Part shown: positions 36,633 through 63,177 of the stretch, piece after piece
How the letters are laid out: every line of letters begins with the position of its first letter
Numbering within the stretch: the stretch's first letter is position 1
Assembly: GCA_964418945.1 (NCBI GenBank)
Contig: CAYQNR010000004.1
Span: forward strand, 2,156 to 66,155
Origin: an uncultured Desulfobacteraceae bacterium
GTDB lineage: Bacteria > Desulfobacterota > DSM-4660 > Desulfatiglandales > HGW-15
DNA length: 64,000 nucleotides
Direction: 5' to 3'
The notes under the pieces: model-generated
The model's database searches: none
The model's input: only the letters and a program-made list of their open reading frames with translations
Told to the model about the DNA's origin: nothing
Program-made: the position numbers and the translations under genes

Positions 36633-36671
36633 TTTTTCGATCTCCTTAATAAAACAATAGGGATTGATTTA

Positions 36672-38375: not shown

Positions 38376-38403
38376 TTCTCTATCCTCCCTGTACTTATAG
38401 TTG

Positions 38404-38775: not shown

Positions 38776-38793
38776 ACAAAGCAGTTTTATCAA
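38776..38793 (+). promoter_or_regulatory. Leader-box-like motif upstream of the Mop gene (copy P6, not position-locked)
   Basis: ACAAAGCAGTTTTATCAA lies directly after a TATAAT (38770-38775). Its spacing differs from the other copies. Confidence 0.3.
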
Positions 38794-38863
38794 TATTTTC
38801 TCTTCATTTACATTTACTTTTTCAATTTCAAATTTAGGATAAACATGAAAGGGGGCCAAGCAA

Positions 38864-41518: not shown

Positions 41519-41529
41519 ACAAAAACAAA

Positions 41530-41564
41530 GAATCGGCAGGCTCGGAAAAAGGGCTTGCCGATTC
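41530..41564. terminator. Hairpin between convergent genes
   Basis: GAATCGGCA ... TGCCGATTC stem between the Mop stop and the AKR stop. Confidence 0.5.
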
Positions 41565-41569
41565 AGCCT

Positions 41570-42697: not shown

Positions 42698-42735
42698 TTA
42701 TGTCCTCCCTTTAGTTACATCTTGAATCAAAGTGG

Positions 42736-43704: not shown

Positions 43705-43743
43705 TTTAATAACTCCTCCTGAATAATGATTTCTCCTTGCCGT

Positions 43744-44718
43744 TTAGGCCTCTACCCAGGGCGAGGCGTGTTCGCCGCTTAGGCAGACAACGATAAAGCC
43801 ATAAGGCTTATCCACCCACCTGGTGATGAGGGGGAGGTGGGGGAAACCCTCGGGGCAGACGGCAACGGTAGGCGTATTAATGATATGTCTCTCTTGGTCC
43901 TTGCCCATACCCAGTTCTAATTCAGCCCCCAAGTAATCCATGTTATCCGGGTCAAGGCCGACATAGACCAATATTTCCGCTTCCGGGTGGTAGTGGGCTT
44001 CGCCGCCGCGGTGCCATTTGCCGCAGTGGGAGTGAAAGCCCCAGGTGAAATTGACCTCAAACCCCTCCAGGTCCTCACCAAAGAGCCAGACAGTCTGGTC
44101 TCCGTTTCCCGGACCAACTCCCCTCTCCGCCGGGTGCATTACGCCGGCACGGTCAGCAATAAAGGCATAACTAAGTGGGTCGCCGGGGGGTGGCGGGCCG
44201 GCGGACTTTCGCTCATCGAACGCCTTCCAGTCAATGTACGTAATCATTCTTTTAATCAAATGGTCGTATTTTGAACCCTTTGTTTTGGCGTTTCTAGGAA
44301 CCGGGGTTGCCTTGTAGTCAGCACCCAAGCCGATGTGGTAATGGACTATAGGTCTGTCCACCCGCCGGTAAGTAACCGGCCCGTGTGGCATCCCCTTGGG
44401 GATAAGCACTACCGATGGCTCGGTAAAGACGTGCTCTTCAGCCTCTTCGCCCAGCTCTATAGATACCTCGGCACCCAGATAGAGTATATTACTGGTATCG
44501 GTTCCCTCAAAAACCAGGCACTCATCGTAAGGGTGCACCAGTGCCCCTTCAAGGGGATGGCAAACGCCGGTATTCTTAACAAAACCAAAGGAAAAATTGG
44601 CGTTGAACCCCTCCATGTCCTTGCCTTCCATCCAGAAAAGCGGATCGGGATATAAGCCGGCGGGTCCCTTCTTGGCAATGAGCGGTTTTATCAGATGGGA
44701 ATACTCTTTCTTGACCAT
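43744..44718 (-). CDS. Bicupin protein, uncharacterised family (paralogue 3)
   Basis: EAHYHPEAEILVYVGLD...CPEGFPHLP. AAAGGAGG lies upstream of the start. Confidence 0.75.
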   Translation of the reverse strand: MVKKEYSHLIKPLIAKKGPAGLYPDPLFWMEGKDMEGFNANFSFGFVKNTGVCHPLEGALVHPYDECLVFEGTDTSNILYLGAEVSIELGEEAEEHVFTEPSVVLIPKGMPHGPVTYRRVDRPIVHYHIGLGADYKATPVPRNAKTKGSKYDHLIKRMITYIDWKAFDERKSAGPPPPGDPLSYAFIADRAGVMHPAERGVGPGNGDQTVWLFGEDLEGFEVNFTWGFHSHCGKWHRGGEAHYHPEAEILVYVGLDPDNMDYLGAELELGMGKDQERHIINTPTVAVCPEGFPHLPLITRWVDKPYGFIVVCLSGEHASPWVEA

Positions 44719-44755
44719 TTTGAATGCCTCCTTTCATAAATAGCGACGATATTAG

Positions 44756-44785
44756 ATTTTAGCCCACCTTAACACACCACGTCAA
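44756..44785 (-). promoter_or_regulatory. Sigma70-type promoter for the bicupin/AKR operon
   Basis: Read on the minus strand: TTGACG, 18-nt spacer, TAAAAT. No leader box follows. Confidence 0.45.
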
Positions 44786-44793
44786 GCCTGAAT

Positions 44794-44822
44794 TTGACAA
44801 AACACCTACAGAGTGCTACGCT
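44794..44822 (+). promoter_or_regulatory. Sigma70-type promoter for the monocupin gene
   Basis: TTGACA, 17-nt spacer, TACGCT. Confidence 0.45.
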
Positions 44823-44906
44823 CTCAGCGTCATCCACACAACAGGCATATTCACGCCTGAGAGTCTCTTTAACAGTCAGGTCTTAGCGAAAGGAGGTAAA
44901 AACCCT

Positions 44907-45356
44907 ATGTCCGAATCAAAACTAGAGAAGTATATCAGGAGAGATATGAAAGTGTCCGAAGAAATCCAGCAGCGTCATCTTGAGGTTAAAAGCCCGGTGC
45001 TGGGTCTGGTCAGTGACCAAAGCCTGGGCAGTAAGGACTTCGCCCTGAGCTGGTGGCCCATCTCTGAACCCTTTGAGATGATTTCGGAACCCCACGCCCA
45101 TGACTTTGACCAGTTCCTCATCTTCGTCGGGGGTGATATGAGGAATATGACGGACCTCGGCGGCGAGGTGGAACTGACCCTGGGCGAAAATGACAACGAG
45201 CTGGAAAAATTCGTCTTCACTACAGCCACCACAGTCTATGTCCCCGCCGGGTTGCTGCACAACCCTCTAAATTTCAAGAAAGTGAATGACCCCAATAAGC
45301 CCATCCTGTTCCAAGACTTTTTCTTTTCTCGTGAGTATAAGAGGAAGGAGAAATAG
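44907..45356 (+). CDS. Single-domain cupin, same family (paralogue 4)
   Basis: EPHAHDFDQFLIFVGGD...VPAGLLHNP. AAGGAGG lies upstream of the start. Confidence 0.75.
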   Translation: MSESKLEKYIRRDMKVSEEIQQRHLEVKSPVLGLVSDQSLGSKDFALSWWPISEPFEMISEPHAHDFDQFLIFVGGDMRNMTDLGGEVELTLGENDNELEKFVFTTATTVYVPAGLLHNPLNFKKVNDPNKPILFQDFFFSREYKRKEK

Positions 45357-45416
45357 AGACGACCGGGAAGATGTACTTCTACAGAGATACATCTTAATTC
45401 TTCTGCCTAAAAACAC

Positions 45417-45444
45417 AGCCGGAGGATGAGAGTCCCCCGGCTGG
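45417..45444 (-). terminator. Rho-independent-type terminator for the URO-D-like gene
   Basis: CAGCCGG ... CCGGCTG hairpin, followed on the minus strand by TGTGTTTTT. Confidence 0.55.
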
Positions 45445-45461
45445 ACTATCTGCTGTTTTAC

Positions 45462-46805
45462 CTATTTATAAACGCCGTATTCCTTGGCTGCTTCCATCAC
45501 CGCCCGCAGGTTATCCGCGTTCCCCTTATTCATAGCGACTCCCCCGGTTAATATATAGCCACCGCCCGGGGCGCAGACCTCGATGAGTTGACGGCAGCAT
45601 TCTTTGACTTCCTGGGGGGTGCCGGTATACAGCACTGAGGAGGGTATATTGCCCGCAATGCAGGCAGTATCACCCAGGATCTTTTTGGCTCTAGCCATAT
45701 CCGTCTGGTCAAACCACCATACCGCCGAACCGCGCGGCAGGTCTTTGATAACCTCCAGTCGCCGGTTGTACTTCCCTTCGGCAAAGGGCATGGGAACCAG
45801 GCCCTCGTTAATCATGCCCATCATCACCTCTCTAAAGGTGGGCCAGTAAAAGGTCTCGTACTGCTTGTCGGACATGAAGGTGTCGTCACCCTTATGCAAG
45901 GGCATAGGTACCACCGGGCAATTCGTTGCATTGGCCGAGGCTACGGCTTCATTAATAAGCATAGGCAACATTCGTTCCATAGCTTCAATGATCTTCTCCG
46001 GCTGGCGGTACATATCCACCATTATCCCGTGCGTCCCCCTCAAAAGATCACCTAGCATGTCAAAGGGCGCGCCGCTAAAGCCTCCCCAGATGGAGGGGAG
46101 TCCCGCCTCCAGAGACGCTCGGCTGCATTCCATAACCACCTGCATCCACTTGTTCGCTTCCGTGCCGGCATCCATAAGAACCTTAAGAGCCTTCTGAATC
46201 TCCGGCCGACCGTACTGGAGAATATAAAAAACCGGTATCGCCAGCATGGGACTTAGTTGAGGAAGAGTCCCCAGCGGCTCCAGGGCCTTCGCGACCCGGG
46301 GGAGGTAGAACCGCCACCAGAAATCGGACGGATCTGTCATGAGGGCGTCATATTCATCTGCCTTCATATATTCGCCCTCAATGAACTGATATGTTTCATT
46401 ATCATCCGGCAGGCCATGGCCTGGCCAGACCTGCAGCCTGAAATCAATGGCTTCAAGCACCTTCCCCGGCATCACGAGCTCGGGGCCAAGATACGTATCC
46501 ATCTCAAAATCATGGAGGAACTTCATATACACCCGTTTCAGCTCGTCGTAATCATACATCGCCTCTTTCAGGTTACTTCCGGCATAGAAAGGCGCGAAAA
46601 ACCCTGCCGGCATCAGGACGGGAACACGGTCAGCCTCTTCCAGGTTAATGGCTTTAATGAATCTTGTGGCTCTTAGCTTATAGGCTTCTTCGGCTTCGGG
46701 GCTGGTGAATTTAACATCAGGCGAAAGCCACCGCTTAAACCTCTCTTCCCGTCTTTCCTGCGGGGTCAACTCCGACCAGTTTTTAACCGTATCCATATCT
46801 AACAC
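45462..46805 (-). CDS. URO-D family protein (methyltransferase-like), paralogue 2
   Basis: 447 aa, homologous to 29023-30255. GGAGG lies upstream of the ATG. Confidence 0.78.
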   Translation of the reverse strand: MLDMDTVKNWSELTPQERREERFKRWLSPDVKFTSPEAEEAYKLRATRFIKAINLEEADRVPVLMPAGFFAPFYAGSNLKEAMYDYDELKRVYMKFLHDFEMDTYLGPELVMPGKVLEAIDFRLQVWPGHGLPDDNETYQFIEGEYMKADEYDALMTDPSDFWWRFYLPRVAKALEPLGTLPQLSPMLAIPVFYILQYGRPEIQKALKVLMDAGTEANKWMQVVMECSRASLEAGLPSIWGGFSGAPFDMLGDLLRGTHGIMVDMYRQPEKIIEAMERMLPMLINEAVASANATNCPVVPMPLHKGDDTFMSDKQYETFYWPTFREVMMGMINEGLVPMPFAEGKYNRRLEVIKDLPRGSAVWWFDQTDMARAKKILGDTACIAGNIPSSVLYTGTPQEVKECCRQLIEVCAPGGGYILTGGVAMNKGNADNLRAVMEAAKEYGVYK

Positions 46806-46820
46806 CTCCGCTAGTTCTGG

Positions 46821-46895
46821 TTATTTGTACACGCCGTATCCCTCGGCACCTCCTATTTCAGCTTGCAGGTTGTCCGGATTACACCTGTCAACCCT
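46821..46895 (-). pseudogene. 3'-terminal remnant of a third URO-D-like gene
   Basis: The minus-strand translation ...VDRCNPDNLQAEIGGAEGYGVYK* matches the C-termini of both URO-D paralogues (...ENLKAMIDFTREYGRY / ...DNLRAVMEAAKEYGVYK). Confidence 0.55.
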
Positions 46896-46902
46896 AGAGC
46901 CT

Positions 46903-47051
46903 TTGATAAGAACTCACCTTTTTTGGGACTGAAGTGTATCGGATTTCCCCTTGTATGTCAAACCAAATCCGGCAGCAGGGTATTATGGCGGGAAACTTGC
47001 TTGCTAGACTGGTTAATTCCGGCCAAGTGGGCGAGCACATTTTAAGCAATT
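46903..47051 (-). promoter_or_regulatory. Promoter plus leader box (copy P4) with ~90-bp conserved upstream module
   Basis: Read on the minus strand: TTGACA (46961-46956), 17-nt spacer, TACACT, 8 nt, then AAAAAAGGTGAGTTCTTATCAA. The upstream part aligns with 58097-58185. Confidence 0.7.
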
Positions 47052-47145
47052 AAATGCTCCGGCCTGCAGTTGTTTTTTCGTGTCAAAATCCACCATCAAA
47101 CGTGCAAATAATTCATACTAGCACAGGATTTTGGTATAACCCTGG

Positions 47146-47299
47146 CCACCATATAGATGTCAGATGCAAGGCGCCAAGGAGCGACGACTGAGGCGTATAT
47201 CAAATACGCCGCAAGGAGGAGCGAACGCAGGCAACACAGCCCTTCGACTTTGCTCAGGGCCATGAGCGTGCCGAATGGCAGATGACATCTAGATGGTGG
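47146..47299. repeat. 154-bp inverted-repeat-bounded element with REP-like cargo
   Basis: CCACCATATAGATGTCA ... TGACATCTAGATGGTGG. The internal CTTCGACTTTGCTCAGGGCCATGAGCGTGCCGAATGG resembles 20610-20650 in MITE copy A. Confidence 0.55.
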
Positions 47300-47366
47300 A
47301 TCAGGCTGGTGTTTATATGATTGACAAAACCCTTAATATAATCTTTCATGCTGTGTGAAGAATTTC

Positions 47367-47690
47367 GGTTCATCCGGTTAATGAGTACGGAAATCACTTT
47401 ATATAAATACTTGGTTTGGCCCATGGGGTCTCTTTGCGACAGGCGAACTTGTTTATGTGCAAGGCCCGGGCAATAAGCCGGACGAGGCGGGCGGCGAGCT
47501 ATTGGAATAGTATATCATGACCGGAAGTCCGGCTATCATCTCACAAGTTACCCGCCCGCCTGGCAGGCACCTTATGCTATTATCTTGCTTCTAACCTTTT
47601 CGCCGCTGCAAAAAGAGCCCCATGGGCCGAACATCACCAATCTTGCTATAGTTTTATCATCATCAAGCGTGCTCATTTGCCGGATGATCC
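47367..47690. mobile_element. MITE-like element, copy D (carries nested element 47425-47621)
   Basis: Left TIR GGTTCATCCGGTTAATGAGTACG and degenerate right TIR CGTGCTCATTTGCCGGATGATCC. Confidence 0.65.
47425..47621. repeat. Nested ~197-bp hairpin element, copy 1
   Basis: GGGGTCTCTTTGCGACAGGCGAA ... TTCGCCGCTGCAAAAAGAGCCCC. Inner stem GAGGCGGGCGG / CCGCCCGCCTGG. Confidence 0.6.
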
Positions 47691-47787
47691 AGAATTTAGG
47701 CCCTCTGGACCTATGGAGGGGATGCTGGATTATATGTGTAACCAGCACTGGCGGTGGTGTTGCCGAGGGATTTGAGAGGCGATCCGC

Positions 47788-48954
47788 ATGAATAGAAAGG
47801 CTTTTGCAGTCCTGGTAGCAAGCATGTTTATATCCATGCTGGGTATGGGTATTGTTACGCCGTTTCTTCCCATCTATGCCAATACCCTGGGCGCTTCCTC
47901 CATGGAAGTAGGTTTGATACAGTCAGCCTTCAGCATGACCGGTATCGGCACCCTTCTTTTTGTGGGACGGCTTTCAGATCGTTTCGGACGGAAATCGTTC
48001 CTCAGCGGCGGACTCATCATTCTTGCTATCTCATCGATTGGACTTATGTTTGCCGAAAAATCCCTTCATCTCATCCTCTGGCGCTTCGTGCAGGGACTCG
48101 GTGCCTCGGCTCATTTGCCCATCGCCCAAGCGTACCTTGGGGACATCACTCCGGAGGGCGACGAAGGAAGGTGGATGGGCTATTTCAATGCCGTTCTCTT
48201 CGCGGGTGTGGGCACCGGCCCTTTGGTTGGAGGAGTCCTTACCGATGCCTTCAATATCCGCACCACCTTTTTGGTCATGGCGGTCTTGAATGTCCTGGCT
48301 TTGATTGCCACGCTCCTCTTCCTGAAAGAGATGCCGCGCAAGACCGCTGCCCGTGAGCACGCCTCTATCCTTGCTCCATTGAAAAGCCGCATCATGCGGG
48401 GTGCCCTCAGCTATCGCTTGACGATCGGCATCGGCACCTCAACTCTTATGGCCTTCGTACCGCTTTTTGCGGACCTGAGGATTGGCATGAGTGCCAGCCT
48501 GATCGGAATCCTGTTGGCGATGCGGACGCCCGTTTCCATAGTCCAGTCTTATACCGGCCGTTTGGCGGACAGGTGGAGCCGCCGGTCCATGGTGATTTGG
48601 GGTGGCCTGGCCTCGGTCGCTGCCACAGCGCTTTTGCCTTTGACCGGGGGATTCTGGTTACTCCTCATCGTCTATATCTCTGCAACGCTGGGGCATGCCT
48701 TCGCGATGCCCGCTACCAATGCTTATATAGTGCATGAAGGACGTACCTACGGAATGGGCGCCTGCATAACGATGTTTATGCTGGCCATGCATATAGGCAA
48801 CAGTATCGGGCCGGTGGTGCTGGGAGGAGTGGCTGACTGGCTTGACCTGGAGTTCACCTTCTACGGGGCTGCTATCTCCATGGCAATAGGGGTCTGGCTA
48901 TTTGCCTGGCTGATCCGCGATCCTTCCGGCAAACCGGAGCCTATAGCAGATTAA
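47788..48954 (+). CDS. MFS transporter
   Basis: 388 aa, 12-TM-like, with the MFS loop motif GRLSDRFGRK. Confidence 0.88.
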   Translation: MNRKAFAVLVASMFISMLGMGIVTPFLPIYANTLGASSMEVGLIQSAFSMTGIGTLLFVGRLSDRFGRKSFLSGGLIILAISSIGLMFAEKSLHLILWRFVQGLGASAHLPIAQAYLGDITPEGDEGRWMGYFNAVLFAGVGTGPLVGGVLTDAFNIRTTFLVMAVLNVLALIATLLFLKEMPRKTAAREHASILAPLKSRIMRGALSYRLTIGIGTSTLMAFVPLFADLRIGMSASLIGILLAMRTPVSIVQSYTGRLADRWSRRSMVIWGGLASVAATALLPLTGGFWLLLIVYISATLGHAFAMPATNAYIVHEGRTYGMGACITMFMLAMHIGNSIGPVVLGGVADWLDLEFTFYGAAISMAIGVWLFAWLIRDPSGKPEPIAD

Positions 48955-48956
48955 CT

Positions 48957-49222
48957 AATTCCTGAATTTTGCATAAACAATCTTGAATGGTTGTTAAAAA
49001 GGTTAGTAATGAGCAACTTGCAGCTTTTTTACCATACAACTATAAAATACCATTCGGGTGATTATGAACTATAAGAAAAATATTCAAGATTGTTTACCCT
49101 TCGGGAGTGCCGATTTTACCGGATCTACTGCGTTATCAAGCGCTTGCGGTAAAGTGCTACAGCTGCGCGCTTGATGCCTTGTATCTCCGGCAAACTCGAC
49201 TCTTGCAAAATTCAGGTAATTA
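48957..49222. repeat. Nested inverted-repeat element directly after the MFS stop
   Basis: Outer arms TAATTCCTGAATTTTGCA / TTGCAAAATTCAGGTAATTA. Inner arms AAACAATCTTGAAT / ATTCAAGATTGTTT. Confidence 0.55.
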
Positions 49223-49223
49223 C

Positions 49224-49280
49224 TTGCTCGGTACGTAATTTTGGCATATACTCATTTTCAGAAAACAGGTTCCCATCATG
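49224..49280 (+). promoter_or_regulatory. Promoter plus diverged leader box (copy P8)
   Basis: TTGCTC, 17-nt spacer, TATACT, 8 nt, then GAAAACAGGTTCCCATCATG. Confidence 0.45.
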
Positions 49281-49386
49281 CATATAGAAGCAGAAGCGTA
49301 GTATGCACAAATTACCACAGTTATTGTGTTGGCATATCCTGCTCCATCATATAGCATGACAGTTATCTCCCGCTTAAAACAATTAA

Positions 49387-49717
49387 GGTTCATCCGGTTA
49401 ATGAGTACGTTAGTTAATGATATCTAAATATTTTGTGCTATATGGGCCATGGGGTTCTCTTTTAACCGGCGAACTTGTTTATGTGCACTGATCCTGCACA
49501 AAACAAGACGAGGCGGGCGAGCATCCTTTTCCAGACTTAGCCGGACCGGGGGATTTTCTATTATCTCATAAGTATTCCGCCCGCCTGGGTGGCACCTTAC
49601 GTAGTTAGCATGCTGTTAATATTTTCGCCGCTTAAAAGAGAGCCCCATGGGCCATTAAGGTACTTATAATAAGGTTTAATCTTTTACTTCTTTACGTACT
49701 CATTACCCGAATGAACC
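49387..49717. mobile_element. MITE-like element, copy C (carries nested element 49451-49646)
   Basis: TIRs GGTTCATCCGGTTAATGAGTACG ... CGTACTCATTACCCGAATGAACC. Confidence 0.7.
49451..49646. repeat. Nested 196-bp hairpin element, copy 2
   Basis: GGGGTTCTCTTTTAACCGGCGAA ... TTCGCCGCTTAAAAGAGAGCCCC. It is flanked by the 9-bp direct repeat ATGGGCCAT (49442-49450 and 49647-49655). Confidence 0.65.
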
Positions 49718-49806
49718 ATAATCAATACTGCTGTTGCATGCAGAATTCAAATTTGATTTTATGCACAAAAGCAAAAAAGAAAGAAGTACTTCAGGAGAAA
49801 TAATAT

Positions 49807-52224
49807 ATGTATGAACTAACCCCGGTTACTGATCGTGTTAAAAGAATTCGTGAAAAATATCGGTCAACCAGGCCAAAGATGTGTATAGCCCGTTATAAGA
49901 TTGTAACGGATTTTTATAAAGAAAACCCGCAATTGCAGGGGATTTTAAAAAGAGCTAAGAATTTCAAGAATCTCTGTGAAAAACTACCTGTCTTGATCAA
50001 CGATGATGAAGTGATCGTGGGCTGGCAGGCCACTTCATACAGGGCCTGCGCACTTTACCCCGAAATATCTATCGGCTGGCTTCTGGATGAACTGAGGGAA
50101 GGATCAATCCCGCACAGGGAATGCGATCCATATATAGTTGATCCTGAAGATGCTGAGTATGTTTTAAGCACCGGGGACTTCTGGTTAAAGGAGTGTCTTA
50201 GCGCAAAGGTGGATGAATATATTCCTCTGGGATATCATAAACACGTAGGAAACGGGGTTGTGACTTTTGGAATAAAGGATACCAGCCAATCTCCTGTCGG
50301 TCATTTTGTCGCTAATTTTGACAAAGCTATCAATAAAGGTTTCGGTGCGATCAGGGCGGAAGCTCAGGCGAAAATGGACGAACTGGAAGGTGTCATGTTC
50401 GGAGATAGTGCTGCCAAATATAATTTTTATCGTGCCGTTACTATTGTATGCGATGGTTTGATTGGTTTCTCAAAGAGATACGCTGAAAGATGCAAACAAT
50501 TAGCTTCAGTTGAAACCAATTCGAATCGAAAAAAAGAACTGGAAGAAATGGCGGATGTTCTTAACTGGATAATGCAGAATCCCTGTCGTAACTTTCATGA
50601 AGCAATACAGTGTATGTATATGTATCAGCTCTGCATGTGCCTTGACGGCCAACAACATGGTATCAGCTACGGCCGCGTAGACCAGTATGTTGGTCAGTTT
50701 TATAAAGCTGATATTGCCGCCGGTACTATCAGCCATGACAGGGCACAGGAACTTCTGGACTTATTCTATTTGAAAGTAGCTGAAATGAACAAAATATGGC
50801 CTTACTTTGCCACACTTTCCGGACCCGGATATACAAGCGGTCAGCTTATGACCATAGGCGGTGTAGATAAAGACGGTAATGATGCAACAAATCCTGTATC
50901 ACCTATGATGCTTCAATCTGCCGGACGTCTGGCCCTGCATGATCCGCCCCAAGCGATGCGCGTCCATAAAGGCACTCCCCCTGGACTATGGGAAGCTGCT
51001 ATTGAAACAACACAGCTTGCTGGCGGAGTTCCGACATTTGAGAATGACGATGTTATTATTCCTGCGCTTATGGAAAGAGGCCTTCCGCTGGAAAGCGCGA
51101 GGAACTACTGTCTTATAGGATGTGTCGAACCTCAGGGATGCGGAGATGAATGGGCCTCCCCGGGCGGCAATGGTACGGAATCGTTCTGGAATATGCTCAA
51201 TGCATTCCTGCTGGCAATCAATAACGGCTACAACCCGATGCCCGGCAGGGACGGCAAGCTTGGAGGCCAGGTAGGACTGCCCACAGGCTATCTTTATGAA
51301 ATGGAAACCTTTGATGAAGTACTTGAAGCAGTAAAGAAACAAATGGAATATTTCGCCAAATGGCAGGTTACCCTTGTGAATTCATGGGAATACGTTGCCT
51401 CCGAACACATGCAGCTTCCTCTCGTATCTGCAACTATCGATGGATGCATGCAGTCAGGCAAAGATGTTATGAAGGGAGGAGCTAAATACAATGCAACCGG
51501 CAACGCGGCAATTGCCATTGGCAATATTACTGACAGCCTTGCTGTGGTGAAATATATGGTATATGATAAAAAACTGGTAAGCGCGAGAGAACTTTATGAT
51601 GCGATAATAAATAACTGGGAAGGCAAAGAAGACTTGCGGCAGCAGATAATCAATGAGGCCCCTCATTACGGTAACGACAATGAGCACACAGATCAATTTG
51701 CAAAATGGGCATCAGCTATATACGCAGATATCATTAACTCATCCACCGGGCCACGCGGGAGATGGTCTGCCGGATTATTTCCGGTCACAACTCATGTTCT
51801 TTTCGGGTGGCTTACAGCTGCATCGCCTGATGGAAGGAAGGCCGGCGAGCCGCTTGCCGACGGAATTTCGCCTGTGCAGCAGATGGACAAAAACGGCCCT
51901 ACTGCTGTTGCAAAATCCGTCTCAGCTATTGATCAGAAAAAATTCTCTAACGGCACGTTGCTTAATATGAGATTCCACCCAACCGCGTTAAGAAATGAAA
52001 CAGGGAAAGAAAAGCTCAAGGCTCTGATAAAGACTTATTTCAAACTTGGCGGTATGGAAATGCAGTTTAATATTGTAAGCGCAGATACTCTCAGAAAAGC
52101 GCAGCAGGAACCGGAAGAATACAGGGATCTGGTTGTCAGGATTGCAGGTTTCAGTGCTTACTTTGTGGAAATTTACAAAGCCAGCCAGGAAGATATCATA
52201 AAACGAACCGAACTGAACCTTTAA
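49807..52224 (+). CDS. Glycyl-radical enzyme, PFL2/diol-dehydratase-type (1,2-eliminase class), substrate unknown
   Basis: C-terminal glycyl motif VRIAGFSAYFVEI. Cys loop LIGCVEPQG with the Glu two residues after Cys. Confidence 0.9.
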   Translation: MYELTPVTDRVKRIREKYRSTRPKMCIARYKIVTDFYKENPQLQGILKRAKNFKNLCEKLPVLINDDEVIVGWQATSYRACALYPEISIGWLLDELREGSIPHRECDPYIVDPEDAEYVLSTGDFWLKECLSAKVDEYIPLGYHKHVGNGVVTFGIKDTSQSPVGHFVANFDKAINKGFGAIRAEAQAKMDELEGVMFGDSAAKYNFYRAVTIVCDGLIGFSKRYAERCKQLASVETNSNRKKELEEMADVLNWIMQNPCRNFHEAIQCMYMYQLCMCLDGQQHGISYGRVDQYVGQFYKADIAAGTISHDRAQELLDLFYLKVAEMNKIWPYFATLSGPGYTSGQLMTIGGVDKDGNDATNPVSPMMLQSAGRLALHDPPQAMRVHKGTPPGLWEAAIETTQLAGGVPTFENDDVIIPALMERGLPLESARNYCLIGCVEPQGCGDEWASPGGNGTESFWNMLNAFLLAINNGYNPMPGRDGKLGGQVGLPTGYLYEMETFDEVLEAVKKQMEYFAKWQVTLVNSWEYVASEHMQLPLVSATIDGCMQSGKDVMKGGAKYNATGNAAIAIGNITDSLAVVKYMVYDKKLVSARELYDAIINNWEGKEDLRQQIINEAPHYGNDNEHTDQFAKWASAIYADIINSSTGPRGRWSAGLFPVTTHVLFGWLTAASPDGRKAGEPLADGISPVQQMDKNGPTAVAKSVSAIDQKKFSNGTLLNMRFHPTALRNETGKEKLKALIKTYFKLGGMEMQFNIVSADTLRKAQQEPEEYRDLVVRIAGFSAYFVEIYKASQEDIIKRTELNL

Positions 52225-52260
52225 ACGAAGAATCTTACCCGCCTCCGCAGTATGCTACGG

Positions 52261-52368
52261 CCTCCAAACCGTGGAGGAATGCGGGTATCCTCCAAATCCT
52301 TGGCTAAGGAAGACTGAAGCTTCGGCGGGTTACGCTGCACCAAAGGTGCCACGGGTTCCTGTCCGTGG
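52261..52368. repeat. REP-like hairpin cluster between the GRE and its activase
   Basis: CCTCCA-aaccg-TGGAGG; GCACC-aaa-GGTGC; CCACGG-gttcctgt-CCGTGG. The segment CCTCCGCAGTATGCTACGG is related to 32491-32515. Confidence 0.6.
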
Positions 52369-52422
52369 GGCTCCACTTTTGCCCGGTATCTTAACTGATG
52401 TGGAAATTTAAGATGCAGATGT

Positions 52423-52448
52423 AAGGGCGGCGTTATCGTCGCCCTTTT
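52423..52448 (+). terminator. Terminator/attenuator-like hairpin between the GRE and its activase
   Basis: AAGGGCG-(10 nt)-CGCCCTT followed by TT. The T-tract is short. Confidence 0.4.
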
Positions 52449-52468
52449 GGTAAAAGGACTATAGTAAT

Positions 52469-53422
52469 TTGGAAAGACAATTAACCGGGAAAGTCTATGA
52501 CATTCAGGGATTTTCAGTACAGGACGGGCCCGGAATCCGCACAACGGTTTTTCTAAAGGGATGTCCTCTTCGCTGCCCGTGGTGCCATAGCCCTGAATCT
52601 CAGCAATTTCACGCACAGCTCAGCTGGATGGAAATGAAATGCGTGGGAATAGACGAATGTGGAAAATGTCTGGAGGCATGCTCCAAAGGCGCGATCTCTC
52701 CCGGAAAAGTCAAAAAACATCCGGTTACACAGGAGGATATCAGACATATCCATATAGACAGAACAATCTGTGATAACTGCGGCGATTGCGCTGATGTATG
52801 CTATCACAAAGCGTTATATATTTGTGGCACGGATTACACTGTAGAAGAACTGGTAGAGCGACTGAGCAAGGACATTCCCTTTTACGAAGAATCCGGCGGC
52901 GGAGTAACAGTTTCAGGCGGTGAACCTTTATCTCAACCGGAATTTACCCTGCAGTTGTTAAAAAGTCTTAAAGAACAAGGAATCCACACTGCACTTGATA
53001 CAACCGGTCATGCTCAATATAGATTTATTGAACAGATTCTGCTGTATACGGATTTATTTCTGTACGATCTAAAACATATGGACAGTGAACAACACAAAAT
53101 AGTCGGTGTAAACAATAAGCTGATACTGGAGAATGCCCAAAAAATTGCAACAGCCGGCGGTAATATACAGATCCGTATACCCGTAATCCCGAATTTCAAC
53201 GACTCGGAAGAAAACATAAGGGAAACGGGCGAATTCTGTAAATTACTTGGCGAAGCAGTAAGTTTAGTACAACTGCTGCCATACCATAATCTTGGCGTCA
53301 TGAAATACCAGAGAATTGATGACAGCAAAAAGGTTCTGGAGGCGCCGTTACCCTCTGATAAAAAGATCCAGGCACTTAAAAGGATTCTTGAAGATATGGG
53401 ACTCCCTGTCACCGTGCACTAG
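52469..53422 (+). CDS. Glycyl-radical enzyme activating enzyme (radical SAM)
   Basis: CPLRCPWC (CxxxCxxC) plus two ferredoxin-like Cys clusters. TTG start. Confidence 0.88.
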   Translation: MERQLTGKVYDIQGFSVQDGPGIRTTVFLKGCPLRCPWCHSPESQQFHAQLSWMEMKCVGIDECGKCLEACSKGAISPGKVKKHPVTQEDIRHIHIDRTICDNCGDCADVCYHKALYICGTDYTVEELVERLSKDIPFYEESGGGVTVSGGEPLSQPEFTLQLLKSLKEQGIHTALDTTGHAQYRFIEQILLYTDLFLYDLKHMDSEQHKIVGVNNKLILENAQKIATAGGNIQIRIPVIPNFNDSEENIRETGEFCKLLGEAVSLVQLLPYHNLGVMKYQRIDDSKKVLEAPLPSDKKIQALKRILEDMGLPVTVH

Positions 53423-53484
53423 GTTTTCTCTGCATTGATATTTTTACGCCTGTTAGGTTGGATTATTTCTCGGAGGTGTTGGCC

Positions 53485-54315
53485 ATGAAAATACCGGATC
53501 TATTCAAAGTGGATAATTATGGTGTGGTAGTCACCGGAGGCGCGAGCGGGATCGGCCTGGGTTATGCAGAAGCGCTTGCTTCAAACGGGGCAAGGGTGAC
53601 TATTCTCGATATCGATGCACAACGTGTCGAAGGTGAAACGACGCGATTGCGCGGTGATGGGCTTGACATCCGGGGCAAGGTTGTAGATGTGACGGATCGT
53701 GTGGCGCTTGATGCTGCCATAGATCAAGCGGCCCATACTTACGGGCAGCTTGATGTGGTATTTGCAAATGCCGGTATCGATCCGGGCGTTGGTTTCGTCG
53801 GCAACCGGGCAGGTTCGAAAAGGCGCCGAGTTTCCGAAGGTGCGCTTGAGAATTACCCGGACGAACGCTGGAACCGGGTGATTGATACCAATCTAAACGG
53901 GATATTCGCAACAGTCAGGGCGGCCGTACGCAACATGAAGCCAAAAAGATCGGGACACATCATTGTCACGTCTTCCCTGGCCTCGACCCGTGTTGAACCT
54001 GTGATCGGAGCGGCATACATGGCTTCCAAGGCGGGTGTTTATATGTTCATGAGAACGGTTGCATTGGAAGCTGCTGCATTCAACATTACCGTCAACGCGA
54101 TCGCCCCCGGATTTATTATAACAAACATTGGTGGCGGCCACGCACACGATCCTGCGGAACAGAAGGCGGTCGCCAAGGAGATTCCAATGCACCGTGTCGG
54201 GTTCCGCAACGACCTGAAAGGGGTGGCGCTTTTTCTAGCATCTCCGGCATCGGATTATATAACAGGACAGGAAATCATCGTCGACGGCGGTTTGGGACTT
54301 GGTTTTGCTGATTAA
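53485..54315 (+). CDS. Short-chain dehydrogenase/reductase (SDR)
   Basis: TGGASGIGLG cofactor motif and YxxxK (YMASK). GGAGG lies 8 nt upstream of ATG 53485. Confidence 0.88.
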   Translation: MKIPDLFKVDNYGVVVTGGASGIGLGYAEALASNGARVTILDIDAQRVEGETTRLRGDGLDIRGKVVDVTDRVALDAAIDQAAHTYGQLDVVFANAGIDPGVGFVGNRAGSKRRRVSEGALENYPDERWNRVIDTNLNGIFATVRAAVRNMKPKRSGHIIVTSSLASTRVEPVIGAAYMASKAGVYMFMRTVALEAAAFNITVNAIAPGFIITNIGGGHAHDPAEQKAVAKEIPMHRVGFRNDLKGVALFLASPASDYITGQEIIVDGGLGLGFAD

Positions 54316-54346
54316 TGCGGTTTTCATTGTTATATATCCAGATTTC

Positions 54347-55333
54347 TTATTGATAAATCTTACTGCTGGAACCTGCAACAGCAGGGATATTGTATTCCTT
54401 TAATATTTCGGTCAGTTCAAGCAGGTTCTTCTCCCACACCACTCTTTCCGGTGGAATGAAACCTTCCATAGGATAAGGCATATTCAGAGAGAGATATTTC
54501 TCAGTACCAATCCTTCTGTAAGGCAAAAGCTGAACCTGCACAATATTATTGCTAAGCTCATCCCTGATAAATTCTCCTGTTGCCCTGATATTTTCCTCGC
54601 TGTTGTTATGATCAGGCACAACAGGTATTCTTATGACAAGCGGTTTCTTCAACTCAACTGTTCTTTTGATATTGTTGAGGATGAGTTCATTGCCGACACC
54701 GGTATATTCCTTGTGCCTTTTTGTATCCATGTGTTTAATGTCCGTTATGACAAAATCCGTATCCTTGTATACTTCCTCCATATGTTCCCGCGGGCAATGC
54801 AGTGATGTTTCAACGCAGGTATTGACTGCCTCGTCTTTGCACGCCTTAAGCAGGAGCACTGCAAATTCATATTGCAGCATAACCTCGCCGCCTGAAAGAG
54901 TTACGCCGCCGCCTGTCTCCAGGTAAAAGCTTTTGTCCTTAAGAATTACTTCCATGAGTTCCGGGACAGTCATCTTTTTACCCCAGATCATAATAGCCCC
55001 GGATGGGCATTCTTCTGCGCATATTTTGCAGTCACTGCATTCAGAGATTTCATCTAAGCGGAATAAATAATCATCCCGCGTTTTGATGGGTGTTCCGGGT
55101 CCGAGAGGGCATGATTTGATGCATAGGGAGCATTTGCTGATTCCAATGCACTTGGAAGGAAAGATGCCTATTTGCTGTTTGGGAGACAGTCCCTCAGGAT
55201 TACTGCACCAGATACATCGCAGAGGGCACCCTTTGAAAAAGACCTCTGTCCTTATACCCGGGCCGTCATGAATTGTATATTTTTGAATATTGGTGACAAT
55301 TCCGAAAGGTTTATCAGCCTGTGTCGCTTCCAT
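54347..55333 (-). CDS. Glycyl-radical enzyme activating enzyme (radical SAM), second copy
   Basis: CPLRCIWC plus auxiliary Cys clusters (CIGISKCSLCIKSCP; CSDCKICAEECP). Confidence 0.88.
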   Translation of the reverse strand: MEATQADKPFGIVTNIQKYTIHDGPGIRTEVFFKGCPLRCIWCSNPEGLSPKQQIGIFPSKCIGISKCSLCIKSCPLGPGTPIKTRDDYLFRLDEISECSDCKICAEECPSGAIMIWGKKMTVPELMEVILKDKSFYLETGGGVTLSGGEVMLQYEFAVLLLKACKDEAVNTCVETSLHCPREHMEEVYKDTDFVITDIKHMDTKRHKEYTGVGNELILNNIKRTVELKKPLVIRIPVVPDHNNSEENIRATGEFIRDELSNNIVQVQLLPYRRIGTEKYLSLNMPYPMEGFIPPERVVWEKNLLELTEILKEYNIPAVAGSSSKIYQ

Positions 55334-55354
55334 TATTTATCTAATTTATTCAGA

Positions 55355-57925
55355 TCAGTCGAAAGACAGCTCAGTTCTGTTTATAAGGTCGCTCTGAAGC
55401 TCCTCGCTGAGTTCCACAAAATACGCGCTGTAACCTGCTATACGCACAAGCAGATCTTTATACTGATCCGGTTTTTTCTGAGCGTCTATAAGGATATCTT
55501 TGCCAATAATATTAAACTGGCTCTGCATGCCTCTGTCTTTAAAATAGACATCCATAAGTGAGATAAGACTATCCCTGCCAGCTTCTCCTGATACAGCTCC
55601 AGGAGAGAATTTCCAGTTGAGAATTATTCCATTGCCAATGCGGCTGTGATCCAGCTTTGCCACTGACTTTGCTATTGCTGTTGGCCCGCTTCTGTCATGA
55701 GACCCCATCTCAGTATGCACAGGGCCTATGCAGTCGGACAGAGGCTCATACGCTTTTCTGCCATCCGGCGTGGTTGCTGTAAACAAACCAGCCATAACAT
55801 TCTGTGTAACGGAAAAAATTCCCGGCATATATTCGCCGCCATGCGGTGTGGGTCTGTGCTCAACGTGTTTGCAGTACGTATCTGTTACGAATCTCGCCAC
55901 ATCATCGGCATAATCGTCATCATTGCCGTAACAATGCATCCTGTCACTGTTTACTAACGCGTACAATGGCTCATACCCTCCCCAGTTCGCTTTTAACGCA
56001 TCGAGCATTGTTTTCCCGTCCACTTTCCTTTCGTCAAACACAAGCTGTTTTATTGCAGTGAGGCTGTCCGCTACAGTTCCTATTCCTACACCCTGCGGAC
56101 CGCTGTGATTATAAAGGGCGCCTCCTGTTGATACGTCCTTGCCCCTGCCTATACAATCTTGGATAAGAAGGGACAGATAAGGCAAGGGTTTAAGCCTCTG
56201 ATGCGCTGTATCCACCTTGTTGACCTGGGAGATCATAATATCGCACCAGTATTCCATTTGCTTGTCAAAGGATTCCATAACTTCATCAAAGGAACTAAAG
56301 GTTTCAAGACTGCCTGTATCAATTCCCAGCCTGCCTCCTATGCCTGCGCATTTTTTATGTCTGGGACAATGAGGACCGCAGTCAATACAGCGTCCGCTGT
56401 TTATGGCAAGCTGCATTACCTTTGCCATATTAAAGGAGCTGGAATCATGCCAGCCATAGGTCTTGCCAGGCACACAAGGTTCAACGCATCCTATTCCAAC
56501 ATAATTTCTTGCATCCTCAATAGGCTTATCATAGTTCTGCAGAGCTTTGATCATTTCAGTATCATTGAAGATCTTTGGCTCGCCGGTTCCGATCCTAATC
56601 ACATTAAAGGTCTTTATCTTGAATTCCCGCGGGGAGTTTTCATGAAGACGCACTCCCATCCATGGATTCGGTATCCTGGTATGCGCATGCGCGTCCAGCA
56701 CCATGTAGCTGAGATCATTCGTAGCGTCATTGCCGTCTTTGTCAACTCCGCCGACATCAAGGGCTGTTCCTCCCATGAAAGTGCCGCTTGAAAAGACTAT
56801 TGCTGTCTTATCGCGGATCTTGCAGAGTTCATGGATTTTGAGGAAGGACATCTCTATGAGTTCCTGAATAAATTCCCTGCTGAATCTGCCTTCTTCAATA
56901 TCTTTTTTATAATAAGGATAAAAGAGCTGATCGAAACGTCCATAAGTTACGGAATGACCGTTTGATTCTATAATGATCATATCAGTTGCAATTTGCCACA
57001 GCTGTATTGCTTCCCAGAAATCCCTGGCAGGGCCTTCCGCCACCTGAAAACAGTTTGCAGAAATACGGAGGAGTTCGGCTTTTCTCTTATCGCTTGTCTC
57101 TTTTTCTGCCATATCAGCAGCTAGCTGCGCATAACGCTTTATGTATGAAACAGCACCCTCCAACGAGATCAACGCAGCGTCGTAGAATTCTTTTTTAAAG
57201 ATATCTTCTGGGTCTGATGTATTCAGCTTTGCAATTTGTTCCTGTATCTGTTTTCTAATTCCGCCGAATCCGAGAGTAAACAGCCTTTCATAGTCAGCGC
57301 AGACATGTCCTACACCTGCTGAAACGAATAAATCGAAAAAATTTATGCCCTTTAGGAGATGAGAGCCTTTGAGCTCTTCTTCAGTCAATGTGCTGAGAAC
57401 ATTCTCTTCCAGAGTGTTTCCTTTCCAATATTGCCGAATCTGGAACAGCGCTTCTTTAGTCTTGTCATCAATAACATAACGGTCATTGCGGCGCTGATCA
57501 AGCGGGAAATTGACCATTTCGTCGCATAGCCAGTCAATAGCGAACTCAGGATAAACAGGCGCGCTTTTTGCCGGTGCGGCTATTTCCCCGACTATCAGTT
57601 CATCTGGCCAGATGTTTATATTCACATTCTGGAGTACATCACGGTAAGTCATTGCGCATTTAAGTATCTGAGGATATGCAGTATATTTTTTGAAGTATCC
57701 TTCTGTGTATATTACCGCCCTCTGATGGTCAGCAGTATGAGCCCTGGCCTTTAGCCATTTCAATATTTTATTTATTCTGGGAAATGGCGACGGGTTTTCT
57801 GTTACACCGGAAACGCCGATTCCCCATTCTTTATCATAGGGTTCTATCCCTAAGGGTTTTTGAACCGAGGGTTCTTGAGTAAATGAGTCAGGGGAATTTA
57901 TATTATTTTCTACTACTGTATCCAT
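55355..57925 (-). CDS. Glycyl-radical enzyme, PFL2/eliminase class, second paralogue, substrate unknown
   Basis: VRIAGYSAYFVEL glycyl motif and GIGCVEPCVPG Cys loop. Confidence 0.9.
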   Translation of the reverse strand: MDTVVENNINSPDSFTQEPSVQKPLGIEPYDKEWGIGVSGVTENPSPFPRINKILKWLKARAHTADHQRAVIYTEGYFKKYTAYPQILKCAMTYRDVLQNVNINIWPDELIVGEIAAPAKSAPVYPEFAIDWLCDEMVNFPLDQRRNDRYVIDDKTKEALFQIRQYWKGNTLEENVLSTLTEEELKGSHLLKGINFFDLFVSAGVGHVCADYERLFTLGFGGIRKQIQEQIAKLNTSDPEDIFKKEFYDAALISLEGAVSYIKRYAQLAADMAEKETSDKRKAELLRISANCFQVAEGPARDFWEAIQLWQIATDMIIIESNGHSVTYGRFDQLFYPYYKKDIEEGRFSREFIQELIEMSFLKIHELCKIRDKTAIVFSSGTFMGGTALDVGGVDKDGNDATNDLSYMVLDAHAHTRIPNPWMGVRLHENSPREFKIKTFNVIRIGTGEPKIFNDTEMIKALQNYDKPIEDARNYVGIGCVEPCVPGKTYGWHDSSSFNMAKVMQLAINSGRCIDCGPHCPRHKKCAGIGGRLGIDTGSLETFSSFDEVMESFDKQMEYWCDIMISQVNKVDTAHQRLKPLPYLSLLIQDCIGRGKDVSTGGALYNHSGPQGVGIGTVADSLTAIKQLVFDERKVDGKTMLDALKANWGGYEPLYALVNSDRMHCYGNDDDYADDVARFVTDTYCKHVEHRPTPHGGEYMPGIFSVTQNVMAGLFTATTPDGRKAYEPLSDCIGPVHTEMGSHDRSGPTAIAKSVAKLDHSRIGNGIILNWKFSPGAVSGEAGRDSLISLMDVYFKDRGMQSQFNIIGKDILIDAQKKPDQYKDLLVRIAGYSAYFVELSEELQSDLINRTELSFD

Positions 57926-58039
57926 TGTATTTTCCTCTAATAATAAACAATAGGGAATTTATTTAAAACTCAATTGAAATTTTTAAAGGAAATTCAATAA
58001 AAGCATAACAATGATATTAATAATCAAAAGGAATAATAT

Positions 58040-58185
58040 TTGATAAGAATTCGCTTTTTGCGGCTGAAGTGTATTGAATTTCCCCTTGTATGTCAAATGA
58101 ATTCAGCCGCAAAATATTGTGGCAGGAAACTGGCTTGTTATATTGTTTAATTCCAGCCAGGAGGGCGAGGAAATTTTAAGCAATT
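58040..58185 (-). promoter_or_regulatory. Promoter plus leader box (copy P5) with ~90-bp conserved upstream module
   Basis: Read on the minus strand: TTGACA (58096-58091), 17-nt spacer, TACACT, 8 nt, then AAAAAGCGAATTCTTATCAA. The upstream part aligns with 46962-47051. Confidence 0.7.
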
Positions 58186-58196
58186 TTCATGTTTTG

Positions 58197-58226
58197 TTGA
58201 CAAGAAGCATATTTCCATGCTAATAT
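58197..58226 (+). promoter_or_regulatory. Sigma70-type promoter for the binding-protein gene
   Basis: TTGACA, 18-nt spacer, TAATAT. Confidence 0.5.
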
Positions 58227-58301
58227 TTAAAATATATAATTCTCATCCTTATAACACAATTATCTATTTGATTTTACATAACAACTGTAACGGAGATCGA
58301 T

Positions 58302-59306: not shown

Positions 59307-59375
59307 TAAATGGCGCTAAAAAAGAGTAGAATCTTAGCCTTAACTGGCGGGATTTTCAGAGTACGCTCGCAAATA

Positions 59376-62132: not shown

Positions 62133-62133
62133 T

Positions 62134-63156: not shown

Positions 63157-63177
63157 CCTCTTTTTCAGTAATATTAA

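Follow-up and report, generated by a model that had tools for sequence, protein, structure and literature searches.

We analyzed a 64,000-nucleotide stretch of DNA from an uncultured Desulfobacteraceae bacterium (GenBank assembly GCA_964418945.1, contig CAYQNR010000004.1; hereafter, the window), in which a gene for a glycyl radical enzyme (GRE), GRE1, is followed by genes for a radical S-adenosylmethionine (SAM) activase, AE1, and a short-chain dehydrogenase/reductase (SDR), with a major facilitator superfamily (MFS) transporter gene upstream (Table 1). Judged by its sequence, GRE1 is an intact, eliminase-like GRE that matches no characterized enzyme, and it belongs to a large unnamed clade that is uncharacterized throughout. 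We propose, with moderate confidence, that GRE1 and AE1 constitute a self-contained module of an uncharacterized clade of the 1,2-eliminase/isomerase type, that its substrate, larger than C3, is a neutral vicinal diol, a polyol or a glycol ether and may be alicyclic, derived from a sugar or substituted with an aryl group, that the SDR most likely handles the carbonyl, and that the MFS transporter is likely not part of the system. The four open reading frames (ORFs) that a first-pass annotation had called were all found again on the plus strand at the same positions, and the RIAGFSAYF and GCVEP motifs that it had read in GRE1 were both located.

GRE1 has the features expected of the GRE superfamily: the barrel (PF02901, residues 8–667, E = 9e-181) and the glycine-radical domain (PF01228, residues 684–787, E = 2e-34), an RVxG[FWY]-type motif, a Cys-loop cysteine, Cys439, that aligns with Cys433 of glycerol dehydratase (GD), and an adjacent activase. 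Its scores against the NCBIfam equivalog hidden Markov models (HMMs) were all below the cut-offs, the highest being that for HpfG (NF048009, 567 versus 1000), followed by HypD (NF043068, 534 versus 1100), CutC (TIGR04394, 520 versus 1050) and HpsG (NF048011, 506 versus 1000), and the broad GD/PFL2 subfamily model TIGR01774 gave 605, below its cut-off of 678. The scores place the eliminases (506–567) before PflD (432), the decarboxylases (IAD 374, HPAD 315) and pyruvate formate-lyase (PFL, 126), and scores against the PDB follow the same order. The closest solved structures are CutC (9f3w, 525 bits), GD (1r8w, 511), 9rco (497), 1,2-propanediol dehydratase (PD; 5i2a, 483) and HpyG (8id1, 446), with IslA (7kq3) at 367 bits; decarboxylase, X-succinate synthase and PFL structures score lower than the eliminases (272–288 bits for BSS/MAS, 106–126 for PFL). 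The first-pass annotation held that no substrate could be assigned, a view that tight clustering of GRE1 with a characterized GRE would have overturned. Since all equivalog cut-offs are missed and the best solved relatives are all only ~35–40% identical, no such clustering is seen, and the failure to assign a substrate stands, with scores far below the cut-offs and the substrate-binding residues of GD, PD and CutC lost. Among representatives at 50% clustering (1.84 billion scanned), the nearest to GRE1 are 56%, 51%, 49% and 45% identical, after which identity levels off at ~36%. A mid-2026 review of the superfamily lists GD, PD, HpfG, HypD, HpyG, HpzG, CutC, IslA/IseG, HpsG, HplG, YbiW, PflD, HPAD, IAD, PAD and AAD, and states that whole GRE clades remain without assignment (PMC13450708); none of the characterized enzymes in this list corresponds to GRE1.

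The Cys loop of GRE1 has a single Cys followed by V-E, and GRE1 shows neither the Cys-Cys pair of PFL nor the small subunits and Glu-less pattern of the X-succinate synthases, which upholds the earlier exclusion of both classes. The statement that small subunits are lacking was also borne out: no small-subunit-like ORF lies within or next to the operon, the sole ORF in the 245-nt spacer between GRE1 and AE1 is a 46-aa ORF opening with GTG, and no conserved small neighbor appeared in the cruder ORF maps (at least 90 aa) of 36 orthologous loci. Small ORFs upstream of orthologs, considered as a conserved small subunit, were rejected as unrelated low-complexity artefacts. The first-pass annotation had further taken GCVEP as a loop typical of the dehydratase/lyase branch; the motif is present, but CxE is also found in GRE decarboxylases and isomerases, including HPAD, IAD and AAD (PMC13450708), so that an enzyme cannot be assigned to the eliminases by its Cys loop alone.

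One alternative, which we regard as highly improbable, is that GRE1 is an arylacetate-type decarboxylase (HPAD, IAD, AAD or the toluene-forming PhdB). Two carriers of the clade, Sporobacter and Desulfatiglans, are specialists on aromatic compounds. The decarboxylases other than PhdB share the CxE loop (PMC13450708), and the clade is common in Acidobacteria of sludge and sediment, the source of PhdB (PMC7079210). However, the decarboxylases score well below the eliminases (HPAD 229–315, IAD 374 and AAD 371 bits versus 445–567), GRE1 has no small subunit, its His166 is of the dehydratase type, and the neighboring carbonyl reductases would have no role. PhdB itself resembles GRE1 as a stand-alone GRE with an activase, in its spacing of 155 between His and Cys (H327/C482 in PhdB, H284/C439 in GRE1) and in a Tyr-x-Val pair downstream of the Cys loop, whereas the Cys-to-Trp, Cys-to-Tyr and Cys-to-Gly spacings, compared by published residues, differ by 3, 10 and 9 (PMC7079210). 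We rejected identity with PhdB because that enzyme depends on Gln484 of a CxQ loop, the Q484E substitution abolishing activity (PMC7079210), and CVE is invariant in GRE1 and all 116 relatives.

We mapped the pocket residues of GRE1 by sequence alignment to GD, 9rco, PD, CutC and HpyG and in a 63-sequence alignment of the loci, and counted conservation over 116 family members that are 62–100% identical. Of the active-site comparison proposed in the first-pass annotation, the part concerning PD and CutC was thus made by sequence alignment, and that concerning HypD, IslA and HpsG by HMM score. GRE1 keeps His166, the counterpart of GD His164 and hence of the proposed acid for the leaving hydroxyl (PMC13450708), the GRVDQY segment with His284 (GD His281), and C439-V-E441. 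Residues G165, H166, H284, G285, R290, Y342, G345, G438–P442, G446, R778 and G781 are invariant, and conservation is 89–99% at D447, E448, W449, T457, E458, V660 and T661 (91–98% for the first three) and 85% at H663. The residues with which GD and PD bind their substrates were not found as a set: Gly285 and Gly345 stand in place of GD Ser282 and Tyr339 (the latter a Phe in PD), Val660 in place of Ser642, as in PD, and Phe in place of Tyr640 in the window GRE1, where most relatives have Tyr. Throughout the clade, the GWHD loop of GD (Asp447) is replaced by GCGDEWA(S/C)PGGxGTES, ~4 residues longer than in GD, PD and CutC, and a further insertion of ~8 residues follows the extended loop. The choline pocket of CutC (Asp216, Thr502/Tyr506) is lost as well, with His at the Asp216 position and a different loop. 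The Gln position of IslA/HpsG is occupied by His166, with no Arg four residues earlier, as read through the GD alignment and the published residues (PMC13450708).

The GRE1 pocket appears to be enlarged by the two Gly replacements and lined with His, acidic (Asp/Glu) and aromatic residues. Such an enlarged pocket without an Arg/Gln/Arg sulfonate clamp speaks against anions and would suit a neutral hydroxylated substrate of more than three carbons. We predict that the substrate is none of glycerol, 1,2-propanediol, choline, hydroxyproline, isethionate and 2,3-dihydroxypropane-1-sulfonate (DHPS). In most family members the extended loop carries two extra cysteines (GCGDEWAC, nt 51136–51159, residues 444–451), Cys445 being present in 108 of the 116 members and Cys451 in 77, with Ser451 in the window GRE1 where most relatives carry Cys451. 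This Cys pair might act as a redox switch or bind a metal.

The chemistry that we propose for GRE1 is predicted from its family, the motifs and their conservation being what is seen. AE1, with SAM and a [4Fe-4S] cluster, would place a radical on Gly781, from where it would move to Cys439, and the resulting thiyl would take a hydrogen from the carbinol carbon of the substrate. Deprotonation of that hydroxyl by Glu441 would give a ketyl radical, upon which a neighboring C–O group, most likely a hydroxyl and possibly an ether oxygen, would leave, protonated by His166. The product radical would regain hydrogen from Cys439 to yield an aldehyde or ketone, which the SDR in this genome, or an alcohol dehydrogenase (ADH), aldo-keto reductase (AKR) or aldehyde oxidoreductase (AOR) elsewhere, would then reduce or oxidize.

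GRE1 could instead be a B12-independent diol dehydratase of glycerol, 1,2-propanediol or ethylene glycol that passes its aldehyde to an SDR, ADH or AOR, an explanation that we find quite unlikely. GD (Clostridium butyricum, 1R8W/1R9D) and PD (Roseburia inulinivorans, 5I2A/5I2G) are among the best solved matches, align with GRE1 over their full length, and share with it the Gly radical motif, the GCVEPQ loop, the His of GVGH, a two-cluster activase and the absence of a small subunit; His166, Cys439 and Glu441 are kept, Val660 corresponds to PD Val696, and an iron-dependent ADH (Fe-ADH) and an AOR lie beside the ortholog in the Eubacteriaceae member ES3, as expected for an aldehyde product. Unlike GD and PD, however, GRE1 misses the TIGR01774 cut-off, has Gly invariantly at the Ser282 and Tyr339 positions and the GCGDEW...GTES loop with its following insertion instead of GWHD, and is only ~37% identical, and neither microcompartment shell proteins nor a 1,3-propanediol dehydrogenase occur among its annotated neighbors. 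A second GRE in the window, GRE2, is much closer to GD (614 bits). CutC (9F3W, 5FAU), the best-scoring structure, has GCVEPQ and GRVDQY in common with GRE1 and belongs to the same mechanism class, but its pocket differs as described above and we saw no microcompartment or cut genes nearby. The isomerases YbiW and PflD, which cleave a C–O bond of anhydro-sugar phosphates, and HplG also combine a CxE loop with ketyl-radical cleavage of a C–O or C–N bond next to a carbinol, and act on ring-shaped substrates (PMC13450708). They score lower than the eliminases (338–405 bits), and, unlike in those systems, the surroundings of GRE1 showed no genes for a phosphotransferase system, an aldolase or sugar-phosphate metabolism, and no conserved basic residues for a phosphate were noticed.

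GRE2 scores above the equivalog cut-off for HpfG, the (S)-DHPS dehydratase (1061 versus 1000), an indication that this Desulfobacterales genome makes use of the organosulfonate DHPS. It keeps the GD-like SNGHS and GKTYGWHD motifs. HpfG gave GRE1 its best NCBIfam score, and GRE1 and GRE2 are both CxE/His GREs with their own activases, adjacent in this lineage, but they are only 35% identical and GRE1 has neither of the two motifs. The genes for GRE2 and its activase, AE2, are convergent with the SDR gene, and the block AE1–SDR | AE2–GRE2 is kept in three relatives (loci L072, L138 and L139; L numbers designate the compared loci). GRE1 might therefore work with GRE2 in organosulfonate degradation, acting on the other DHPS enantiomer or on a hydroxy-sulfonate, with the SDR handling a sulfo-aldehyde or interconverting enantiomers; we consider this very unlikely. 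SDR-type DHPS 2-dehydrogenases are reportedly known from work on HpsO/HpsP of Cupriavidus. The three relatives are 88–91% identical to the window, however, and thus represent one lineage instead of independent cases, so that no functional tie is demonstrated, and GRE1 orthologs in other phyla have no GRE2-like gene (at least 50% identical) in their flanks. His166 at the IslA/HpsG Gln position and the missing flanking Arg also speak against a sulfonate, and the conserved Asp447, Glu448 and Glu458 at aligned pocket positions disfavor an anion. A basic SKRRR insert in the SDR was considered as a clue to sulfonate binding and rejected for want of conservation among SDRs of this family.

The activase is the sole constant neighbor of GRE1: of the 36 loci with an ortholog of at least 58% identity, 30 have it directly downstream. 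AE1 carries CPLRCPWC at residue 32 (CX3CX2C) and a ferredoxin-like two-cluster insert. Many loci, including most of those in Acidobacteria and Desulfatiglans, embed the GRE1–activase pair among housekeeping genes (GatA/GatB, AsmA, HisS), and outside one narrow lineage the module is the GRE and its activase alone. In the window the SDR gene follows AE1 on the same strand after ~60 nt, and within that lineage the GRE1–AE1–SDR trio is kept in at least seven related contigs (L034, L072, L073, L137–L140). The SDR has the motifs of a classical SDR (TGGASGIG at residue 17, NAG at 95, YMASK at 178), reaches no NCBIfam equivalog cut-off and is probably NAD-dependent. Its family is 75–96% conserved in Deltaproteobacteria and Acidobacteria, and 75–79% orthologs occur on other contigs of Acidobacteria metagenome-assembled genomes (MAGs) that also carry GRE1 (L011 with L074, L016 with L141).

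Beside more distant orthologs we found other carbonyl-handling enzymes: a tungsten AOR and an Fe-ADH, together with a PF04392-type ABC system, in ES3; an AKR with an iron–sulfur domain (AKR-FeS) and three ene-reductases of the old yellow enzyme (OYE) type in Sporobacter termitidis; and an esterase and a different SDR in a Desulfobacterales genome (L002). That unrelated families of carbonyl-handling enzymes are swapped in beside orthologs supports an aldehyde or ketone as the product, and in this lineage the SDR most likely reduces or oxidizes the carbonyl product of GRE1. The first-pass suggestion that an SDR handles this carbonyl is made plausible by its operonic position in all close relatives and by the enzymes found elsewhere; its weaker point is the proximity of GRE2, to which we return below. 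Regulators and transporters near orthologs vary: ES3 and Paenibacillus have PucR-type regulators that share 48% identity, two Clostridia combine LysR with CitMHS, and some orthologs have unrelated MFS proteins nearby. A conserved downstream partner of ~420 aa was rejected, since only a few Acidobacteria, all closely related, carry it and it matches no Pfam family.

It is unlikely, in our judgment, that the gene order is simply accidental, with the MFS, GRE1–AE1 and SDR genes unrelated and the product of a lone GRE1–AE1 module entering general metabolism. The constancy of the activase alone, the housekeeping surroundings of many orthologs, and the recent shuffling indicated by inserted elements and by the differing upstream neighbors in sibling genomes (see below) are all consistent with such an accident. 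The short gap between AE1 and the SDR and the conservation of the trio speak against it, as do the SDR and MFS orthologs (73–79%) in the same Acidobacteria MAGs as GRE1, 2.7 kb apart in one of them (L074), and the recurrence of carbonyl-handling enzymes next to distant orthologs.

The MFS protein, which the first-pass annotation called an importer, gave its best NCBIfam matches to drug:H+ antiporter (efflux) subfamilies, all below cut-off, so that import is not established, and the gene is missing upstream of GRE1 in the closest relatives and absent altogether from 35 other ortholog loci. A divergent SDR gene next to RND efflux genes takes its place in two close relatives (L137, L140) and a histidine-kinase/PF04392 cluster in a third (L037), and homology to the relatives ends ~240 nt downstream of the MFS stop codon. 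MFS orthologs on metagenome contigs (57–82%) are not next to GRE1, and their neighbors were uninformative except in five contigs (L092, L093, L096, L097, L108), where the gene follows a bicupin pair homologous to window positions 42736–44718. In the Acidobacteria MAG JAFGIY (L074), by contrast, a 73% MFS ortholog lies 2.7 kb from a 75–76% SDR ortholog, which keeps an MFS–SDR link alive. The MFS genes that accompany GRE1 in Paenibacillus and Sporomusa showed no homology to that of the window. Membership of the transporter in the GRE1 unit is therefore doubtful, and it is probably not a dedicated part of it, so that the first-pass scheme of uptake, elimination and reduction or oxidation has only partial support.

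The 850-nt gap between the MFS gene and GRE1 contains a 331-nt element resembling a miniature inverted-repeat transposable element (MITE). A conserved motif, GTAATTTTGGCATATACTCATTT.CAGAAAGCAGGTTC, which we infer to be a promoter, lies 45–55 nt upstream of the GRE1 ATG in relatives and ~540 nt upstream of it in the window, where ~480 nt including the MITE are inserted between the motif and the ribosome-binding site of GRE1, a Shine–Dalgarno-like AGGAG 9 nt upstream of the ATG. A riboswitch or regulatory RNA shared by the MFS and GRE1 genes was considered for this ~330-nt structured element and rejected: it has no Rfam match, and further copies with terminal inverted repeats at other places in the window mark it as a MITE rather than a ligand sensor. 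Members of this MITE-like family (325–390 nt, terminal inverted repeats GGTTCATCCGGTTAATGAGTACG, long internal hairpins) were observed at 20561–20949, 27385–27407 (left end only), 47367–47690 and 49387–49717, the latter two at sites where gene order departs from that of sibling genomes. Near these two copies, G+C content falls from 0.49–0.53 (28000–48000) to 0.43–0.47 across the block with the two GREs (~48000–62000), a drop that fits a laterally acquired or rearranged segment. Between GRE1 and AE1, a G+C-rich hairpin followed by UUUU is possibly a partial terminator that keeps expression of the activase low relative to GRE1. Consensus scans for promoters and terminators gave results at chance level.

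Several genes to the left of the transporter have homologs near members of the GRE1 superclade, which suggests that the functional neighborhood of GRE1 extends left of position 47788. Cupin or bicupin proteins occur near seven such loci (L006, L017, L018, L031, L040, L066 and L070, the last with a copy 46% identical); an AKR-FeS adjoins GRE1 in L070 (40% identical); OYE-type ene-reductases lie near GRE1 in three loci, as a 74% ortholog 3 kb from GRE1–AE1 in Desulfatiglans (L045), a 44% homolog adjacent to it in L070 and a 36% homolog in L031; and a protein resembling uroporphyrinogen decarboxylase (URO-D) was found in L031 (35%), L068 and L040. A single gene at 36672–38495 on the minus strand, with an in-frame TGA at 37977–37979, the motif GMGH-U-SLC and a signal-like N-terminus, encodes a UGSC-family selenoprotein fused to a domain of ~400 aa without a Pfam or PDB match, and orthologs of this fusion, with TGA or Cys, lie 0.5–3 kb from a GRE gene in five loci (L006, L022, L036, L043 and L054). 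Together, these recurrent partners suggest that GRE1 takes part in a redox pathway, so far little understood, whose intermediates are unsaturated or carbonyl compounds.

A more specific version, in which GRE1 catalyzes a reaction new to the family as a radical C–O lyase/dehydratase for bulky neutral glycols derived from plants or polymers, with the cupin/bicupin, AKR-FeS, OYE, URO-D-like and UGSC-selenoprotein genes as partners, is in our view a long shot. If true, substrates might be, for example, aryl or alkyl glycol ethers such as 2-phenoxyethanol, units of the polyethylene glycol type and lignin beta-O-4 units, or alicyclic vicinal diols from anaerobic polyphenol breakdown. Acetogens cleave glycol ethers anaerobically, and the enzyme responsible is not known to have been identified. 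A literature search returned nothing relevant on the GRE1 clade, on GREs in UBA6911 or Desulfatiglans, or on an identified anaerobic glycol-ether lyase.

Some points weigh against our preferred reading of GRE1–AE1 as a module for a larger neutral hydroxylated substrate. The mechanism is drawn by analogy, with a CxE motif that decarboxylases and isomerases share, and the pocket residues were placed by sequence alignment to GD, PD, CutC and HpyG. Each of the neighbor associations, though recurrent, covers a minority of the loci; the SDR may equally serve the adjacent HpfG-type GRE2; and the ~480-nt insertion upstream of GRE1 might impair its expression in this genome.

Further genes of the window were noted in passing. 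A cluster at 38864–46805, made up for the most part of uncharacterized redox genes, encodes a molybdenum aldehyde oxidoreductase of 884 aa, an AKR that includes a 4Fe-4S domain, a URO-D/MtaA-like protein (447 aa), two bicupins of 322 and 324 aa that are paralogs and match no Pfam family, and a single cupin (149 aa). A redox gene set at 22065–23996 (plus strand) and 24891–26990, 30286–32349 and 34686–36632 (minus strand) comprises two proteins of the OYE/FAD ene-reductase type with the architecture of 2-enoate/naphthoyl-CoA reductases, the second being the one with the 74% ortholog in Desulfatiglans, a tungsten-type AOR and an FAD_binding_2 flavoprotein. At 58302–63957, PF04392 'ABC substrate-binding' proteins flank in an array a histidine kinase of the hybrid type, which has dCache, HAMP, HisKA and HATPase domains and two receivers. 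Neither a permease nor an ATPase lies near these proteins, which may be sensor partners. The kinase/PF04392 cluster adjoins GRE2 in the window and GRE1 in a sibling MAG (L037, 1–7594), and a PF04392 protein heads the ABC system at the ES3 ortholog. A minus-strand ORF of 1594 aa at 6127–10911, unusual if real, joins a full resistance–nodulation–division (RND, AcrB-type) domain to a C-terminal ABC ATPase, and adjoins a second RND pump, a membrane-fusion protein and an outer-membrane factor.

Table 1 Positions of the genes, motifs and elements discussed, in window coordinates
Feature	Position	Strand	Details
MFS transporter, DHA1-like	47788–48954	+	388 aa; PF07690, E = 4e-59
GRE1, glycyl radical enzyme	49807–52224	+	805 aa; PF02901 and PF01228
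AE1, radical-SAM GRE-activating enzyme	52469–53422	+	317 aa; TIGR02494, 348 versus cut-off 174
SDR	53485–54315	+	276 aa from ATG; PF13561 and PF00106; ORF opens with TTG at 53458, ATG at 53485 the likelier start
GRE1 Cys loop GCVEPQGCGDEW	51118–51153	+	Predicted thiyl radical site Cys439 and general base Glu441; clade-specific extension GCGDEW
GRE1 GCVEP, residues 438–442	51118–51132	+	Motif
GRE1 glycyl radical motif RIAGFSAYF, residues 778–786, Gly781	52138–52164	+	Motif
GRE1 PVGHF motif with His166	50293–50307	+	phmmer alignments to 1r8w, 9rco and 5i2a; aligns with GD His164
G+C-rich hairpin followed by UUUU	52423–52450	+	19 nt upstream of AE1 start; sequence and fold
MITE-like element in GRE1 upstream region, 331 nt	49387–49717		Terminal inverted repeats GGTTCATCCGGTTAATGAGTACG
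MITE-like element, second copy	47367–47690		Ends 97 nt upstream of MFS start
Conserved upstream motif GTAATTTTGGCATATACTCATTTTCAGAAAACAGGTTC	49236–49272	+	Alignments with relatives
GRE2	55355–57925	−	856 aa; HpfG-type
AE2, second activase	54347–55333	−	328 aa

The clade to which GRE1 belongs is large and widely distributed. At E ≤ 1e-50 we found 1037 homologous proteins, the top ~100 of them 73–94% identical and none informatively named, and homologs in 68 genome loci. In data with one genome per species, orthologs of 74–96% identity occur in Desulfobacterales, Desulfatiglans, many Acidobacteriota, Spirochaetota and Leptospirales, and orthologs of 58–66% in Clostridia, Negativicutes (Sporomusa acidovorans), Paenibacillus and Actinomycetota, the closest genome being an uncultured Desulfobacteraceae MAG (L034, L037; 91–96%). 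Carriers come from at least six phyla and from sediments, peat, digesters, soils and rumen. Identity across phyla reaches 75–89%, so high that it indicates strong constraint and lateral spread of GRE1. Some Firmicutes (L047, L056, L033, L053) have two or three tandem GRE paralogs with one shared activase, in which a GCQEI-type paralog lies next to the GCVEP type, and this arrangement suggests a family of related uncharacterized reactions.

GREs carry out difficult anaerobic chemistry, and substrate classes assigned to them in the past (choline to trimethylamine, hydroxyproline, sulfonates, anhydro-sugars) exposed overlooked pathways. Cultured carriers, namely Sporomusa acidovorans DSM 3132, Sporobacter termitidis DSM 10068 and Paenibacillus puldeungensis, make the question of the GRE1 substrate tractable. 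Assigning it would annotate many genomes together and could reveal that anaerobic carbon flow follows a common but unrecognized route, which may start from glycols of plant or synthetic origin.

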